64,000 nucleotides of DNA from an uncultured Ruficoccus sp. (lineage in GTDB: Bacteria; Verrucomicrobiota; Verrucomicrobiia; Opitutales; Cerasicoccaceae), in contig OZ223481.1 of the NCBI GenBank assembly GCA_965140785.1, positions 352,001-416,000 of the forward strand, given 5' to 3'. This document shows, piece by piece, positions 33,001 to 39,000 of this stretch (positions are counted from its first letter, which is position 1; each line of letters starts with the position of its first letter). The position numbers were made by a program.

Positions 33001-36000
33001 GTGCTGGTCATGGCCCCGGCGAAGGCCCCGGCGGCCATCCCGGCGTCGATCCCGAACAGCTTGGCCAGGCCCCAGGTGGTGAGCGCGCCCGAGCCGACCA
33101 CAACCAGCGCGAGCTTGGCGAGCTGGCTGCCCTCGCGCTTGAGCGCCCCGAAGAAGCGGTTGCCCGCGCCGATGCCCACGCAATAGACGAACAGCGCCAG
33201 CCCGATGCTGCCGATTCCGGCAGGGACGGTGCAGCCAAAGTGACCGGCCAGCAGCGCCGCGAAGATGACGCCCGATGAGCCCAGGGTGATGCCCTTGATC
33301 TGGATGCTCCCCAGGGCCAGCCCGAGGCCGATGAGCCCGAACAGGGTCAGCAGCGGGTTGCTCAGGAGAGTTTGGAAGAAGTCGCTCGGCATGTGGTGTT
33401 CTCTGGTGAGGGCGCGGAATAAGCGGCCCTCAGCCTGCCCCGGTTTGACCCGGCGGACACGCCGTGCGACCGACATCCCTAGCGCGAAGATGTCTGGTAG
33501 GATCGGGCATTCTGGCTTGCCGGGACTGGGGTCCGGTCACAGTTGCGCGTCAGCTCCTGGTTTTCACAGGATTTCCCCGATGCTGTTAATAGGTGAAATT
33601 AAGCGCGGGCAGTCGTAGGGGCGAGGCGAAAGAGAGTCAAGTTTTGTTTATGGTTTGCTGTAATTGTATTAGCTTTTATTGTTGTCCGGCGGCGGAGAAT
33701 CCGCCGTAGCGGTTCCCTCAAACGGCTTGAGTGTAATTAAAGAAATGCAGTGTCCACAGATTACACAGATGGGCACAGATAGACCGGAAAAAATCTGTGC
33801 CCATCTGTGTAATCTGTGGATAAATACAATACCACCTGCGACCCGCCTGCATTCAAACGGCTTAAGCTCTCACCAACGCCCGCAAGGTGATGGCCTCCGT
33901 TTCAGCCGAAGGCGGTCCCCCATGGGCGCGGGATCAGTAGGAAGGAGCCAGGTGCCGGCTCAGGCCCCGTGCGCGATAGCACCGGCGTAGGTGTAGCCGC
34001 CGCCGAAGGCGACCAGGCCGTACTTGGCGCCGGGGCTGATGCGGTGCAGGTTTTCCTCCAGGCACAGCGGGATGGAGCTGGAGGAGGTGTTGCCGGTCAG
34101 CTTGACGTTGCGCCAGACGCGCTCGGGGTCGATGTGGAGCTGGCGGGCCACCGCGTCGAGGATGCGGTCGTTGGCCTGGTGGGGGATGATGCCCTCCAGG
34201 TCGGTCGGCGGCGTGTCGCACTGCTCGCAGACGGTTTCGAGCATCTGGCGCATCTTGCGCACGGCCTTCTGGAAGACCCGCCCGCCGCTCATGGAGATCT
34301 TGTTCGTCGGATCTGGCAGGGGGACGGAAAGGAATTCGCCGGTCTCGCCCTCGGCGGCCAGGGCAGGCTGGTGCAGCCAGAATTTCGGTTTGTCGGCTAC
34401 GCCGGAGCCTTCGAGGAGGGTGGCGGTGGCGGCGTCGCCGAAGAGGATAGCCGTGTCGTAGTCCTCCATGTTGAGCAGCGAGCTCATCACTTCGGAGGTG
34501 ACCATGAGTACGCGAGCATCCGGGCGGGTGTGGAGGAAGTCATAGGCCAGCGAAAGGCCGTAAAGGTAGCCGGAGCAGGCCGCGCTGATGTCGAAGGCCG
34601 GGCATTCGTAGTCGCCGCCGACGGCGTGCAGCAGGCGGCAGGCGAGCGAGGGCGTCGCGATGTCCGGCGTCGTGGTCGAGCAGATGACCAGGTCGATGTT
34701 TTCGATCGACATGTCGAGGTTGGTCAACAGCCGGGTGGCCGCATCGACGGCCAGGGTGAGCACGTTCTCGCCTTTGGAGACCCAGGGGCGGGAGTGGATA
34801 CCGCACTGGCGGATGAGTTTCTCCTCCGTGCTGTCCGGGAAAAGTTTCAGCAGCTCGGCGTTGGAAACCTGGCGTGAGCCGCGGGAGGAGGCGATCGCGC
34901 TCAGGCCTACGTAACGGGTCTGCGGGCTGACAATGGCGGGCGCTTCCACCGTGGCGGCTTCGGCGGGCCTGGCCGGTTCGGAAAGCAGGTACGGGGTTTC
35001 CTTGACGCGGCGGGCGGAGTCGGCGGCGGCTGCGATCTCGTTGGCCACGCGCAGGCGCAGGATGGGCGCGCCCACGCGGACGGTGCCCCCGGCCTCGACG
35101 AGGATTTCCTCCACCGTGCCGCTCTGCGGGGAGAGCAGGTCGGCGGCGGCCTTGTCGGACTCGAAGACACCCAGCACGTCGTCCACCTTGACCTCCTTGC
35201 CTGGTTCGGTCAGCCATTCGGCGATGGTGACGGAGTCGTCGGAGGCCGAGACGCCGAGGGCGTTGATGGTAAAGAGTTGGTCGTCATCCCCGGCTTCGCG
35301 CTTCCAGCCGATCTCGAGCTTGAGCAGGTCGGCGGCGGCAGTGACGATGCTGCGCATCGAGGGCAGCGTCTCCAGGTGGCTGGGGAAGTGGAAGGGCACG
35401 TAGGTATCGGCCCGGGCCACGCGGCGCACGGCGACGGGGCGCTGGGCGGCCTCGACCACGGCGGCGCAGATTTCCGCGCCGGGGCCGTAGGAGAGGGAGT
35501 CCTCGTGGACGACCACGAGCTTACCGGTTTTTTCCGCCCAGGCGGTGACAAGGGGCTTGTCCCACGGGCTCAGGCTGCGCAGGTCGATGACCGCGCTGGA
35601 GACCCCAAGCGTGTCGAGGGCCTCGGCGGCCTCCTCGCACAGCGAGACCGTGTTACCCCAGCCGACCAGGGTCAGGTCCGTGCCCTCGCGGGCGAGGCGG
35701 GCGCGTCCGGCGGGAACCCAGTGCCGATCGATGTCGGCGGAGGTGGACAGGCCGCGGTTGTTGAGGAGGTTTTTCGGGTAAAAGAAGACCGAGGGGCGGC
35801 GCGAGGCGAAGGCTGCCCGGAGCATCCCGGCGGCATCCCCGGCGTTCGAGGGCATGAAGACATCCACGCCGGGGCTGTGGGCGGCGATGGCCTCCATGGT
35901 CTGCGTGTGGGTGGGCCCGGTGCCGGGCCGGTAGCCACCGCAGGAGACCATGAGGATGACAGGGGCTTCCCACTCCCCGGCACTGCGCCAGTAGGTGATG

Positions 36001-39000
36001 GCCAGCTCGCTGTGGAACTGGTTGTAAACCATGGGGAAAAAGTCGGCGAACTGGACGAAGGCCACGGGCTGGCCGCCGGCCATGGCGCGGCCGATGGCGG
36101 TCCCGATGATGGTGGACTCGGCCAGGGGCGCGTTGCGCACGCGTCCGGGGTGCGCGGTGGAGAGACCCTTGGTCACGCCGAAGGCGTCGCCCTTGGGGTC
36201 CTCGATGTCCTCGCCGTACAGGCTGACGGCGGGGTTGGTCTCGAGCTGCTCCTTGAGCACGGCGACGATGGACTCGCGCATGGAGAGGTCGGCGGCACCG
36301 TCCTTGCCGGTGTATTCCTTGTTGGAAAGGTAGTGCGAGGACAGGGGGCGCTTGACCTCGGGGGCGAGGGCGGGCGCGGGGACCTTGCGGGAGTCCTCGG
36401 CGGCGGCTTCGGCCTGCTCGCGGCACGCCTGGTCGATCTGTTTGACCTCATCCTCTGAGAGACCCAGCTCGACGAGCTTCTGGGCCAGCAGGGCGATGGG
36501 ATCGGCTTCCTTGACGATCTGGTCGATCTGTTCAGGTGTGCGGTAAAGGCTCTGGTCGTCGGCGTTGGAGTGGCTGCCGAGGCGCTCGGCTTCGACCATG
36601 ACGAGGGCCGGGCCGCGGTCTTCACGCATTTTCGCGCAGACCTTTTCGAAGCCTGCGCGCATGGCCAGGGCGTCGCGACCGCTGAGGCGGGTCATTTCGA
36701 GGCCGAAAAGCTCATCGTGCCGCTTGCCGCCGGGCAGGGAGTAGAAGGTCTTGCCCTCGGTCACGGTGGAGAGGGCGAAGTGGTTGTCCTGCACGACGAA
36801 GAGGACGGGCAGGTGGTCGCGCACGGCCTCGGCCACGGCCTCGAAAAAGTCCCCCTGCTGGGTGCCGCCGTCACCGATGGAGCAGTAAACGATGGGCTTC
36901 TCCGGCTGGTCCTTGACCTGGGCGGCCACACCGACGGAGGGCAGCAGGTTGTTGGAGACGGAGGTGGGCATGGTCATCACATGCAGCTCGCGGTCGGAGT
37001 GCATGGTGTTGAGCTGGCGGCCCTTGGAGCTGGAACGGGCGTTGCCGAAGAGCGCGTCGAAGATCGTCTCGGGTTTGATACCGCGGGCCAGTTGCAGGGC
37101 GCGGTCGCGGTAGTGGCAGTGGAGCCAATCCTGGGGCCCGAGGAACTCGGCCAGCGCGGCCAGAGCCTCGTGCCCGGCGCATTCGACGTGGAAGAACGCT
37201 TCGCCGCGCTTGATCAGGCGGGCTTCGAGGCGCTCGATTTCGCGCGACAGCCGCATCCAGCGGTACAGCGCACGGGCAGCGTCAAGGACGGAGGCGTCGG
37301 AAGCCTGCTCGGGTTTCGAAGAGGTGTGCAGTGGTTGCTTCAAGCAAAAATCCTGGGTTAGACGTTCGCTGCCGTCAGGTTAGCCATCGACCCGTAAGAG
37401 CCGGGAGCGCAGAGCGCCCGTATAACTAATGTGCGAATTTTCGATAGTTTATCAAATTTTCCGTGTACTTGCGTGGGCTCTATTTTTTGACAGCAGACTG
37501 TCAAATGGTTCCTTTTTGCAAGTGCGAAAAAGGAGCCAAGACGGTTATTGATAGAGCGTTTGGTCTCGGGAAACCAGTTTTTTTTCACCCGTCCTGCTGT
37601 CAATCTTCGGGCAGCGCGGGGGCCTCCTCCGGGCCGATCCGTTCGCCCCGGCGCAGGCGCTCGCGAATCCCGGCGATAACGGCGTCAAACCGGGCCAGCC
37701 GGGTTCGCGCCTCGGCCTCCCCGGGGTCGGGGTCGATCACGTCGGCCACGGCGCCGTTGCGAATGACCAGCCGCCGGTCCCCGGAAAGGGCCAGGATCGG
37801 GTCGTGGGTGGAGAGCAGAACGATCTTTCCCTTTTGTACAAAGAGCTGGAGCGCGCCCTGGCGGTCCACCCCGGCGTTCTCGATCTCGTCGATGAGGACG
37901 ATGGGCTTGGGGCTGAGGAAGGCGGCGTCGGCGATCATGAGGGCGCGGGATTGCCCGCCGGAGAGCTGGGTGACCTGTGTTCGCGCCTCGAAGGGCTCGC
38001 CCGCCATGGCCACGGCGGCGGTGAGTACGCGCTGGACGATCTTTTCCGGAGCCTCCAGGGCGCGGCTCTCGGCGTGCATGGACAGAAACTCCGCCACCGT
38101 CAGGTCCATGATGAAGTTCATGTTCTGGGTGATCTGGGCCACGAGCCCGCTCTCGCCGGAGAAGCGGTCCTCGCCCGCCGGGGGCTGTCCGTTGATGAGG
38201 ACGCGGCGTCCGGTGGGCGTGTCACCCTGGGCCATGCACTCGATGTCGGCCAAAAAACGGCTTTTTCCCGCGCCGGTGGGGCCGACCAGGCAAATGACCT
38301 CGCCGGGCCGGAAGGTCAGGTCGAAGCGCTCCGGCTGGCCGTCTTTGTTCCGTCCGCGCAGGACGGTCAGTTCGGACAGGACGGGCGCTTCCCCGAACAC
38401 AGAAGCGTCGGCCTCTGTCTCCAAAAACACCCGGTAGTCGGCCTGAAGCTTTTTTAAGGAAAACCCGCTCGCCTCGCGCTCCTCCCACGGGAGCGCTTCC
38501 CAATACGCCTCCAGCGAATCTATTTCTGTCGTCGGCGCGGGCAGGTGGTTGAGCGCGATAAACGCGCCCAGGCGGGACTCGGCTGGGGCGTCAGGAGTGG
38601 GGCTGGTTTTTGTTTCGCTCATGCCTGGTTGTTTTTTATTCATCCACAGATTTCACAGATGGGCACAGATGTACTCATAAAAAATCTGTGACCATCTGTG
38701 GTTAATATAAAACCCTCAGCCCTTGCTCGTCTCCGGTTCGGGGATACGAATCTTCCTCACCGTGCCCTGCTGGTGTTCTTCACCGATGCGCAGCTCGCCG
38801 AAGCAGTACGAGCATACCGCTGTCGGCACGCTGAAGCGCATGCGCCCGCCGGTCAGGGGGACGTCGTCGGGAGCTTCTTGCCAGAGGCGGGAAAGTTCCC
38901 ACGAGCCCTGGCCGGTGATGCCGTTGAGAAAGACGATGCGCGCCTTGGCGTTGACCTGGCGCACGCGGTAGGCGAAGACCTCCCGCTCGGCCTGGCTGAC

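Follow-up and report, generated by a model that had tools for sequence, protein, structure and literature searches.

Iso and anteiso fatty acid synthesis in Bacillus and Staphylococcus is initiated by FabH, which is fed by a branched-chain 2-oxoacid dehydrogenase (BCKDH) complex (E1αβ-E2-E3). In actinobacterial OdhA, an OGDH-type E1 is joined to an E2 succinyltransferase domain, with no condensing enzyme and, as far as is known, no lipoyl domain of its own. OdhA is described as an E2o-E1o 'two-in-one' 2-oxoglutarate dehydrogenase, uniting an E1 and an acyl acceptor domain in one polypeptide (PMC10415282). Fusions in QncN/QncL/QncM (quinocarcin) and SclQ1-4 (scleric acid) likewise combine an E1-like TPP enzyme with a lipoyl and an acceptor domain; QncL, as characterized in PMC6335953, comprises E1β, lipoyl, and acyltransferase domains and hands the lipoyl-bound acyl group to a carrier protein instead of CoA. 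These systems belong to secondary-metabolite clusters, draw on a ketose phosphate as donor, and load a dedicated ACP through an E2-type acyltransferase, with no condensation. Type II fatty acid synthesis has alternative, non-FabH starts as well, by malonyl-ACP decarboxylase or, in Pseudomonas putida F1, by FabB (PMC10869286); these routes begin with malonyl-ACP or acetyl-CoA, and none of them uses a 2-oxoacid primer via a lipoyl arm.

The gene described here lies in a 64-kb window (the whole stretch of DNA analyzed) and encodes E1α, E1β, one lipoyl domain, and a complete FabH-type KAS III in a single chain (Table 1). With the BCKDH complex and FabH it has in common a TPP-dependent alpha/beta-type E1, the lipoyl swinging arm, E3 re-oxidation, and a Cys-His-Asn KAS III joining a short acyl primer with malonyl-ACP. 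It differs from them in the fusion of all four modules, in the absence of an E2 core and a PSBD, an acyl-CoA intermediate not being expected, and in a KAS III devoid of the CoA contacts W32 and R151. The reading frame is uninterrupted from a TTG, the sole in-frame start 5' of a later ATG (1,098-aa version). Initiation at the ATG would truncate an N-terminal helix confidently predicted by AlphaFold2 (residues 16-45; pLDDT about 95 at 21-40) and remove a conserved LYRxM motif, and the alignment of a same-genus homolog (G246) begins at residue 1, all of which backs the upstream start proposed in the first-pass annotation. The single-polypeptide architecture that it reported is confirmed by the one frame and by six Pfam matches above cut-off (ACP_syn_III at residues 917-980, ACP_syn_III_C at 1040-1123, and the four listed in Table 1), as is the absence of an E2 acyltransferase core, since neither 2-oxoacid_dh nor E3_binding matches the protein at E≤0.01 in Pfam.

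Table 1. Position of the fusion gene in the window and of the segments encoding its domains
Feature	Position	Strand	Basis or remark
E1α-E1β-lipoyl-KAS III fusion gene	33960..37343	-	1,127 aa, TTG start, stop codon included
E1α (TPP-binding), residues 28-324	36372..37262	-	Pfam E1_dh, 151 bits
E1β, Transket_pyr 353-528 and Transketolase_C 546-656	35376..36287	-	Pfam
Lipoyl domain, residues 705-764 (Pfam range)	35052..35231	-	Pfam Biotin_lipoyl, 50 bits
Disordered stretch of the lipoyl-to-KAS III linker, residues 792-808	34920..34970	-	pLDDT <50
KAS III (FabH-type) domain, residues 810-1123	33975..34916	-	NCBIfam NF006829

The catalytic residues of the E1 and lipoyl modules are intact. In the TPP-Mg motif GDG...N, G157, G159, and N187 are invariant and D158 nearly so among 40 homologs; E409 and H479 of E1β are invariant and align with positions 76 and 146 (counted by hand) of the human BCKDH β chain; and the lipoyl-lysine K731 within ESDKAA (codon 35151-35153) is kept in 40/40 homologs. 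The tether between E1β and the lipoyl domain is short and of constant length across the family, and the Ala- and Pro-rich linker from the lipoyl domain to KAS III spans 37-82 aa. AlphaFold2 with a 40-row alignment gave a pLDDT of 87.9, nearly the same as the 85.6 obtained before, and a pTM of 0.68, with disorder confined to residues 1-14 and 792-808. The enzyme is probably a homodimer. The protein reaches 264 bits in the NCBIfam FabH subfamily NF006829 (cut-off 249), and its KAS III remains under the cut-off of TIGR00747 (231 vs 292).

The fusions make up a large family, a single clade with a patchy distribution across eight or more phyla. Residues 690-1127 are matched at E≤1e-10 by 919 of the 7,998 candidates scored; 111 of the best 120 of these matches are 1,089-1,166 aa long and carry the identical six Pfam families. 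In species-representative genomes, tblastn confirmed 667 stretches of the fusion, and it is encoded at full length in 26 of 301 Verrucomicrobiota genomes with completeness ≥90% (including the genome under study, G000), two further Verrucomicrobiota copies being split across contig ends. These counts agree with the earlier view that the fusion is not an assembly or gene-calling artefact. The gene is solitary: none of its neighbors is shared consistently among phyla (the most frequent is present at 14/79 loci), nor is a biosynthetic cluster.

The fused KAS III shares its fold and C112, H244, N274, R249, M207, G209, and F213 (E. coli numbering) with canonical FabH, represented by E. coli b1091 and by the copy on contig C30 of the same genome. 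Its catalytic residues are C923 (codon 34575-34577), H1055, and N1085, and its ACP-docking residue is R1060. Among 47 fused KAS III domains, C112, H244, N274, R249, M207, and G209 are each found in 47/47, and F157, N247, and F304 are likewise invariant. In contrast to canonical FabH, the domain is located behind an E1-lipoyl module, and W32 is changed to D/E/K, R151 to F/Y/P, and F87 to T/S (K842, Y962, and T897, respectively, in our protein). W32 is present in 0/47 fused domains (D in 31, E in 8, K in 4), as is R151 (F in 21, P in 11, Y in 10), and 24/47 still have R36, which also contacts CoA/ACP. W32, R36, R151, and R249 all occur in 21/21 stand-alone FabHs from carrier genomes (our genome and 20 of the 27 other carriers), which extends the Trp32/Arg151 loss already noted in the first-pass annotation. 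Arg151 presumably serves as an adenine clamp. Trp32 and Arg36 are presented as key to CoA binding, and Arg36 and Arg248 (H. influenzae numbering) as likely involved in ACP binding, in PMC9040583.

In the same order, some 36 genomes encode a 1,012-1,140-aa ORF matching residues about 1-680/780 at 34-39% identity. Three of them were run through Pfam, and all three consist of E1_dh, Transket_pyr, Transketolase_C, a lipoyl domain, and a 2-oxoacid_dh core, lack E3_binding, and retain the DHR and TDKA motifs. We know of no characterization of such single-chain E1α-E1β-lipoyl-E2 core proteins of Opitutales (Coraliomargarita, Lentimonas, and others); of 8,000 candidates scored, 1,765 belong to their family at E≤1e-20. 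These proteins resemble the KAS III fusion in the scaffold, the E1 clade, the lipoyl domain after E1β, and the lack of a PSBD, but at the C terminus they have a CoA-dependent acyltransferase core bearing a DHR motif as the acceptor, and E1 identity between the two is just 36-42%. In trees of E1α and of E1β, each of 58 rows, all 47 KAS III fusions group in a single clade (SH-aLRT 100), and a larger clade with a support of 99 unites them with the E2 fusions and other E1s of the fused-alpha/beta kind, among them a Streptomyces fused E1αβ beside an NRPS. The two fusions never occur together among the genomes examined: no E2 core is found in an ORF >803 aa in 27 KAS III-fusion carriers, and no KAS III in an ORF >455 aa in 25 E2-fusion genomes. 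Since the related Opitutales scaffold ends in an E2 acyltransferase core, KAS III occupies the exact position of the lipoyl-arm acceptor. The F87-to-T change might at most hint at a larger primer pocket, because 9/10 canonical FabHs from iso-fatty-acid-rich E2-fusion genomes keep F87.

Contrary to the earlier supposition, the enzyme is not self-contained and requires E3, lipoylation, and ACP in trans. E3 over cut-off and LipA are each present in 28/28 carrier genomes; no E3 gene lies within the window, as stated before. Canonical FabH co-occurs in our genome and in 27/27 other carriers, and the fusion is therefore an auxiliary initiator, never a replacement of canonical FabH. Together with at least one E2 core in 26/27 other carriers, and likewise in our genome, this means that other routes exist. 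The remaining carrier (G065, 97% complete) has no E2 core at E≤1e-10; it also contains an orphan E1α, so an assembly gap is possible. Our genome has three E1_dh genes only (PDH, OGDH, and the fusion) and no separate BCKDH.

With somewhat better than even confidence, we regard the fusion as a single-chain 2-oxoacid:ACP primer synthase with direct lipoyl-to-KAS III channeling, acting beside canonical FabH and yielding a (branched) 3-oxoacyl-ACP. The fused E1αβ with TPP would decarboxylate a 2-oxoacid, most likely a branched-chain one (2-oxoisovalerate, 2-oxoisocaproate, or 2-oxo-3-methylvalerate), and reductively acylate the lipoyl-lysine K731 of its own lipoyl domain. The arm would swing via the flexible linker to KAS III, where the acyl group would pass from the acyl-dihydrolipoyl thioester to Cys923, as it does with an E2 core for CoA. 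KAS III would then join it with malonyl-ACP, the product entering ordinary type II fatty acid synthesis, and the arm would be re-oxidized by free dihydrolipoyl dehydrogenase (E3). Of the original proposal, acyl transfer without acyl-CoA stands as the best-supported reading, because the sister family has an E2 core at the same place, because the CoA nucleotide-binding residues are lost only in fused KAS III while condensation and ACP-docking residues are invariant, and because cultured carriers contain iso-branched fatty acids.

We infer the branched-chain substrate from this correlation with phenotype, not from sequence; the best NCBIfam E1 matches are PDH models, far under cut-off, and PDB matches and the E1α and E1β trees do not favor either a BCKDH-like or a PDH-like type. 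The same channeling chemistry could, though this seems unlikely, serve another substrate or purpose: conversion of pyruvate to acetoacetyl-ACP as a direct glycolysis-to-lipid shunt, use of a non-oxoacid donor as in transketolase-like QncN/QncL, or priming of one special lipid (the 3-hydroxy acyl of ornithine lipid or lipid A) instead of bulk iso/anteiso chains. The last option agrees with the location of the Rhizobium gene between olsE and olsC (10/10 and 9/10 loci), and another substrate with the PDH matches and with the Streptomyces fused E1αβ. In Planctomycetes, and in most rhizobial lipids, the acyl chains are straight. Straight-chain C14:0 and C18:1w9c are also described as predominating in Cerasicoccaceae, the family of Cerasicoccus and Ruficoccus, the closest named relatives of the window (PMC10288369), which also favors another substrate, as does QncL, presented as loading ACP with a glycolicacyl unit from ketose phosphate (PMC6335953). 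Against these options, the gene is solitary, acetyl priming is already covered by PDH and FabH in carriers, and iso-branched chains distinguish cultured carriers with lipid data. Rhizobium tropici, R. leucaenae, R. lusitanum, and R. rhizogenes carry the fusion, as do 46 of the 151 genomes sampled from this genus; in Table 3 of PMC7656272, C15:0 iso 3-OH stands at 14.0% for R. tropici CIAT 899, at 1.1-7.8% for four species related to it, and as '-' for R. leguminosarum. Pontiella genomes encode the fusion, and the major fatty acids reported for Pontiella and Kiritimatiella include i-C12:0, i-C14:0, and i-C18:0 (PMC7356697). Coraliomargarita, which encodes the sister E2 fusion and was once described as straight-chain too, in fact has 10-23% iso-C14:0 (PMC10288369).

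Less probable still is a role of KAS III as a mere substitute for E2, with Cys923 moving the acyl group from lipoyl to holo-ACP (or CoA) without condensation and other condensing enzymes extending the resulting acyl-ACP (or acyl-CoA). Its placement just where the sister family has an acyltransferase core would suit this, as would the acetyl-CoA:ACP transacylase side activity of E. coli FabH and the several KAS III-like proteins that are pure acyltransferases. However, such relatives typically drift at the positions that are invariant here, namely His1055 and Asn1085 (malonyl decarboxylation and condensation), the ACP-docking Arg, F157, N247, and F304, and the loss of W32 and R151 disfavors transfer to CoA.

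The least probable reading, mere co-localization, in which an E2 core of another complex (PDH/OGDH) unloads the E1-lipoyl part and makes acyl-CoA that the fused KAS III uses like any FabH, would accord with the E2 cores of most carriers, the partial retention of R36, and the commonness of fusions of consecutive pathway enzymes, but it is opposed by the lack of a PSBD (E3/E1-binding) domain and an E2 core in the chain, by W32 and R151 being lost in the fused domains and kept in the canonical FabHs of the same genomes, by G065 despite its possible assembly gap, and by the sister family, whose acceptor fused in cis argues for a lipoyl arm that, in this scaffold, delivers to the C-terminal domain of the same chain.

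As a primer synthase, the fusion would supply iso/anteiso acyl chains, 3-hydroxy-iso included, alongside canonical acetyl-CoA-dependent FabH. It represents known modules wired in a new way, by which (branched) fatty acids are probably started directly from 2-oxoacids without a CoA intermediate, a route undescribed so far.

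The fusion gene encodes E1 alpha, E1 beta, a lipoyl domain and KAS III in one chain, as the first-pass annotation had described: the ORF is unbroken, six Pfam domains lie along it, and neither the E2 core (2-oxoacid_dh) nor E3_binding was detected in the chain at E<=0.01. Against the FabH models of NCBIfam, the protein scored 264.2 bits with NF006829 (cut-off 249) and 230.8 bits with TIGR00747 (cut-off 292.1). TTG is its correct start, giving the longer form, because residues 16-45 form a confident helix in AlphaFold2, an LYRxM motif (residues 26-30) is conserved in the homologue alignment, and the homologue of the same-genus genome G246 can be aligned from residue 1. 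The AlphaFold2 model, built with 40 homologues, reached a pLDDT of 87.9 and a pTM of 0.68, with pLDDT below 50 limited to residues 1-14 and 792-808. Its sole internal disordered stretch lies within the linker between the lipoyl domain and KAS III, which across the family is Ala/Pro-rich and 37-82 aa long (median 44); a short stretch whose length does not vary tethers the lipoyl domain to E1 beta.

Coordinates of the fusion, its domains and the other features discussed (residues counted from the TTG start; L, fetched loci; G, genomes, with G000 that of the window; C, contigs)
Feature	Location	Strand	Description
Fusion gene	window 33960-37343	minus	one unbroken ORF, 1,127 aa, TTG start
E1_dh	residues 28-324		Pfam, 151 bits, over cut-off
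Transket_pyr	residues 353-528		Pfam, 88 bits, over cut-off
Transketolase_C	residues 546-656		Pfam, 98 bits, over cut-off
Biotin_lipoyl	residues 705-764		Pfam, 50.1 bits (cut-off 22.1)
ACP_syn_III	residues 917-980		Pfam, over cut-off
ACP_syn_III_C	residues 1040-1123		Pfam, over cut-off
Palindrome	window 37486-37505		upstream of the fusion gene
Metal-uptake fusion	window 29133-31172	minus	ZnuA-type binding protein and ABC ATPase in one ORF, 679 aa
Metal-uptake fusion	window 27673-29136	minus	ABC-3 permease and Fe_dep_repr_C domain in one ORF, 487 aa
E2 fusion, G054	L097:3015-6062	minus	Pfam-checked; the three about 1,010-1,076 aa
E2 fusion, G060	L098:3806-7036	plus	Pfam-checked
E2 fusion, G294	L099:4077-7187	plus	Pfam-checked
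olsE, Rhizobium	L042:8714-9712	plus	flanks fusion; same olsE/olsC setting in L034, L035, L046, L047, L049, L052, L053, L057, L062
olsC, Rhizobium	L042:13395-14240	minus	flanks fusion
Fused E1 alpha/beta, Streptomyces xanthii plasmid	L105:5956-7968	plus	670 aa, directly upstream of NRPS
KAS III-like gene cluster, G000	L011:7469-13473 (C10)
KAS III-like gene cluster, G000	L012:5624-9675 (C39)
KAS III-like paralogue of E2-fusion genomes	L140-L149, e.g. G096:C109:181300-182800		open frames of ~360-420 aa

The gene is solitary; around it in the window lie metal ABC transporters, an iron-dependent repressor, a permease, a CobW GTPase and a two-component pair. Two ORFs of the window are unusual metal-uptake fusions in their own right. 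The promoter scan returned no sigma-70-like sites. Some 145 bp ahead of the TTG start, within the AT-richer intergenic region, lies a perfect 8-4-8 palindrome, TTTGACAG CAGA CTGTCAAA. The window holds a single copy, against 0.15 matches expected by chance, and none was found ahead of the fusion gene of G246; the palindrome could be an operator or the terminator of the upstream gene.

That the fusion is no artefact, as claimed in the first-pass annotation, follows from a large family of full-length relatives with the same architecture. Of 7,998 candidates scored, 919 match over residues 690-1127 with E<=1e-10, and 111 of the best 120 of these 919 combine the same six Pfam families with a length of 1,089-1,166 aa; the best named match, 90% identical over residues 690-1127, is a Ruficoccus amylovorans protein. 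Full-length fusions occur in 26 of 301 Verrucomicrobiota genomes (at least 90% complete), and two more are split over contig ends. A scan of species-representative genomes yielded 667 confirmed fusion stretches, the best 79 of which were assigned by record titles to spirochaetes (25), Planctomycetota (16), Kiritimatiellales/Pontiella (13), other Verrucomicrobiota (5), Sumerlaeota (2), Rhizobium or Rhizobiales (10), Devosia(ceae) (2), Betaproteobacteria-labelled records (2), Xenococcus (1), Armatimonadota (1) and others (2). No full-length fusion was found on plasmids. Clustering of the ORFs of these 79 loci gave no neighbour gene common to the phyla, the commonest being present in 14 loci; neighbours are lineage-specific, comprising GAF-PtsP and an ammonium transporter in Kiritimatiellales, aconitase in spirochaetes, and olsE/olsC in Rhizobium. 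Supposed split forms among the matched proteins were set aside as unreliable: P0082, P0104, P0031 and others begin within E1 beta and look like truncated gene calls, P0119 (826 aa) being the only one that begins near the alpha/beta junction. Full-text literature searches turned up no description of the fusion, and the paper on the R. tropici genome is silent on the gene.

In the mechanism that we propose, E1 would decarboxylate a 2-oxoacid and acylate K731, the lipoyl arm would bring the acyl group to C923 (C112 of E. coli FabH) with presumed direct lipoyl-to-cysteine transfer, KAS III would condense it with malonyl-ACP, and E3 would re-oxidise the arm. In 40 aligned homologues, G157, G159 and N187 of the TPP-Mg motif GDG...N are invariant and D158 is kept in at least 90%. 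E409 and H479 of E1 beta are invariant too; their counterparts in the human BCKDH beta chain, counted by hand along the alignment, are positions 76 and 146, and we take their roles to be activating the cofactor and transferring protons during reductive acylation. The predicted lipoyl-lysine K731 is present in 40/40 sequences, within a DKA-type turn (D730 in 29, A732 in 33). In KAS III, the catalytic triad C923, H1055 and N1085 is invariant in the same alignment, and so is R1060, the ACP-docking arginine (R249 of E. coli FabH). As far as conserved residues can tell, all three modules of the fusion look catalytically alive. The simplest assembly would be a homodimer, because E1ab and FabH are each dimers in known structures.

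The nearest solved structure for the E1 part is the T. thermophilus 2-oxo acid dehydrogenase 1um9 (chains A and B). With the PDH equivalogs TIGR03181, TIGR03182 and NF008854, E1 scored 176, 155 and 187 bits against cut-offs of 411, 394 and 454, all far under the threshold, compared with 436 bits (cut-off 394) for the real PDH E1 alpha of the same genome. Assignment of the substrate by sequence failed, as NCBIfam models, PDB matches and E1 alpha/beta trees do not part BCKDH-like from PDH-like proteins.

The sole support for a substrate, a correlation with the lipid phenotypes of cultured carriers, points to branched-chain 2-oxoacids. In Table 3 of PMC7656272, C15:0 iso 3-OH stands at 14.0% for R. 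tropici CIAT 899, with lower values for R. multihospitium (7.8%), R. miluonense (5.7%), R. dioscoreae (3.3 and 1.1%) and R. hainanense (2.9%), and '-' for R. leguminosarum. Among named species, R. tropici, R. leucaenae, R. lusitanum and R. rhizogenes carry the fusion; across 151 sampled Rhizobium genomes it was detected in 46 (43 of them mutually 87-100% identical) and not found in 105. In the Rhizobium tropici/rhizogenes clade, it lies 267 bp downstream of olsE on the same strand (10/10 loci) and convergent with olsC (9/10), both identified over NCBIfam equivalog cut-offs (NF052566, 565 bits; NF052565, 541 bits), and this flanking links the fusion to membrane-lipid tailoring. Pontiella genomes and one Pontiellaceae isolate also carry the fusion, and a passage of PMC7356697 names i-C12:0, i-C14:0 and i-C18:0 among the major fatty acids of Pontiella and Kiritimatiella. 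Coraliomargarita, which bears a sister fusion ending in an E2 core, contains 10-23% iso-C14:0 (PMC10288369). In contrast, Cerasicoccaceae (Cerasicoccus, Ruficoccus) contain predominantly C14:0 and C18:1w9c (PMC10288369); minor iso chains are possible in this family, since Coraliomargarita was once described likewise. The same chemistry may also operate with a different substrate or yield a special lipid product.

To examine the KAS III module, we took E. coli FabH, as annotated in the K-12 record, as the alignment reference and numbering, and compared the fused sequences with 21 stand-alone FabHs, namely the copy of the window's genome and those of 20 of the 27 other verrucomicrobial carriers. 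C112, H244 and N274, as well as R249, M207 and G209, are kept in 47/47 fused and 21/21 stand-alone proteins, and A246, N247 and I250 in 47/47 fused ones. The loss of Trp32 and Arg151 reported in the first-pass annotation is confirmed in the aligned sequences: each residue is found in 0/47 fused KAS III sequences and in 21/21 stand-alone FabHs, position 32 being occupied by D (31), E (8), K (4) or others (4), and position 151 by F (21), P (11), Y (10) or others (5). R36 is kept in 24/47 and 21/21, respectively, and F87 in 0/47 (T in 39) and 20/21. Ten canonical FabHs from genomes with the E2 fusion behave like the 21 stand-alone proteins at these residues. We considered the F87-to-T replacement as a sign of a larger primer pocket and downgraded it, because canonical FabHs keep F87 in genomes making much iso-C14:0. 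Arg151 presumably stacks on the CoA adenine in E. coli FabH-CoA structures. According to a passage of PMC9040583, Trp32 and Arg36 are key for CoA binding, and Arg36 and Arg248 (H. influenzae numbering) are likely to serve ACP binding. The residue pattern fits an enzyme that has kept condensation and malonyl-ACP use and no longer takes its primer from CoA.

A rival reading, in which a foreign E2 unloads the arm and priming then proceeds from acyl-CoA as usual, is disfavoured by the loss of the CoA residues from the fused KAS III and by the absence of a binding domain from the fusion. At least one E2 core was found in 26 of the 27 other verrucomicrobial carriers. The carrier G065 (97% complete) encodes the fusion, E3, LipA and an orphan E1 alpha of 337 aa, with no E2 core at E<=1e-10; this reflects either a genome genuinely devoid of E2 or an assembly gap, and we do not count it as strong evidence because of the orphan E1 alpha and the 97% completeness. 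A KAS III acting as a transacylase only is disfavoured by the invariant His and Asn.

Direct loading of KAS III from the lipoyl arm would call on partners encoded elsewhere in the genome. The window's own genome contains a PDH operon (E1 alpha, E1 beta and E2 over PDH cut-offs), an OGDH operon with E3, and a second E3; it has only three E1_dh genes and therefore no separate BCKDH. E3 (TIGR01350, encoded away from the fusion) and LipA both exceeded their cut-offs in 28/28 carriers, this genome included, so the arm of the fusion can be lipoylated and re-oxidised. Action of E3 on a lipoyl protein without a binding domain has a precedent in the H protein of glycine cleavage. A canonical FabH is encoded in the window's genome (456 bits) and in 27/27 other verrucomicrobial carriers (415-459 bits), which makes the fusion an extra initiator, never the sole KAS III. 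Ferredoxin-type 2-oxoacid oxidoreductases occur in G000, G246, G065 and G303, and these four genomes may reach branched primers by a route that depends on CoA. The window's genome has three more KAS III-like genes, in unrelated clusters; of two such clusters (L011 and L012), one comprises an SDR, a hexapeptide transferase, a glyoxalase and an FkbH-like protein, and the other an amine oxidase, a FabA-like dehydratase and an SDR.

The sister E2 fusion bears on the origin of the protein. In ~36 of 301 genomes, within the window organism's order, an ORF of 1,012-1,140 aa matches residues ~1-680/780 at 34-39% identity. The three of these 36 checked with Pfam contain E1_dh, Transket_pyr, Transketolase_C, lipoyl and 2-oxoacid_dh core domains without E3_binding, and keep the catalytic DHR and TDKA lipoyl motifs. 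The E2 fusion, which looks like an undescribed minimal 2-oxoacid dehydrogenase devoid of an E1/E3-binding domain, counts 1,765 family members (E<=1e-20, 8,000 candidates scored), the named ones being Coraliomargarita parva, C. sinensis, C. algicola and Lentimonas; in Coraliomargarita it is presumably the BCKDH. Many E2-fusion genomes also encode a second KAS III-like paralogue (L140-L149), with Q in place of F87, Y in place of R249, and R151 retained.

In quick IQ-TREE analyses (LG+G4, 58 rows each) of E1 alpha and E1 beta, the 47 KAS III fusions form one clade (SH-aLRT 100), nested in a wider clade (support 99) with E2 fusions, a Streptomyces fused E1ab beside an NRPS, and one fused E1ab with a normal E2 adjacent. 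Annotated BCKDH, PDH and acetoin-dehydrogenase references fall outside this fused-E1 clade, where BCKDH and PDH references are not separated. The two fusions were not found together: among 27 KAS III carriers, no ORF above 803 aa holds an E2 core, and among 25 E2-fusion genomes, none above 455 aa holds a KAS III. Given the scaffold shared with a sister that ends in an E2 core, KAS III stands exactly where the arm-unloading domain normally is. The Streptomyces xanthii NRPS cluster (L105), whose E1 belongs to the clade of both fusions, also contains pabB, prephenate dehydrogenase and chorismate mutase.

To our knowledge, all textbook short-acyl-primer starts of bacterial fatty acids proceed via acyl-CoA. 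The nearest described logic is that of QncN/QncL/QncM, in which, according to a section of PMC6335953, an E1beta-lipoyl-acyltransferase gives a lipoyl-bound glycolicacyl unit to an ACP, lipoyl arms thus being able to feed carrier-protein pathways without CoA. There, unlike in the fusion, the transferase is of the E2 type, the donor is a ketose and the ACP is a dedicated one. The fusion carries the catalytic signatures of both the 2-oxoacid dehydrogenase and FabH families; lacking an E2 core and PSBD, it is not a classical 2-oxoacid dehydrogenase complex, and lacking the CoA nucleotide site, it is not a classical FabH. Its novelty is a new wiring of known modules. We tentatively propose, as a reading that falls slightly short of an even call, that the fusion is the first case of a condensing enzyme charged from an acyl-dihydrolipoyl arm bound to protein, providing a CoA-independent start of fatty acids directly from 2-oxoacids; that it decides whether a bacterium makes iso chains, an example being the iso-C15:0 3-OH that marks the Rhizobium tropici/rhizogenes clade and probably resides in ornithine lipid or lipid A; and that it arose once, by KAS III replacing the E2 core of a single-chain 2-oxoacid dehydrogenase, and was then transferred horizontally over at least eight phyla.

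If this is true, a KAS III loaded by a lipoyl arm would add an initiation route to bacterial fatty acid synthesis and a new type of acyl donor for thiolase-fold condensing enzymes. It would explain iso fatty acids in bacteria that lack a BCKDH complex or possess an acetyl-specific-looking FabH, for example anaerobic Kiritimatiellales and Pontiella and the R. tropici clade. The fusion would also offer a genetic handle on the long-used chemotaxonomic marker iso-C15:0 3-OH, and a one-gene module for engineering branched-chain fatty acids or fuels from amino-acid precursors.
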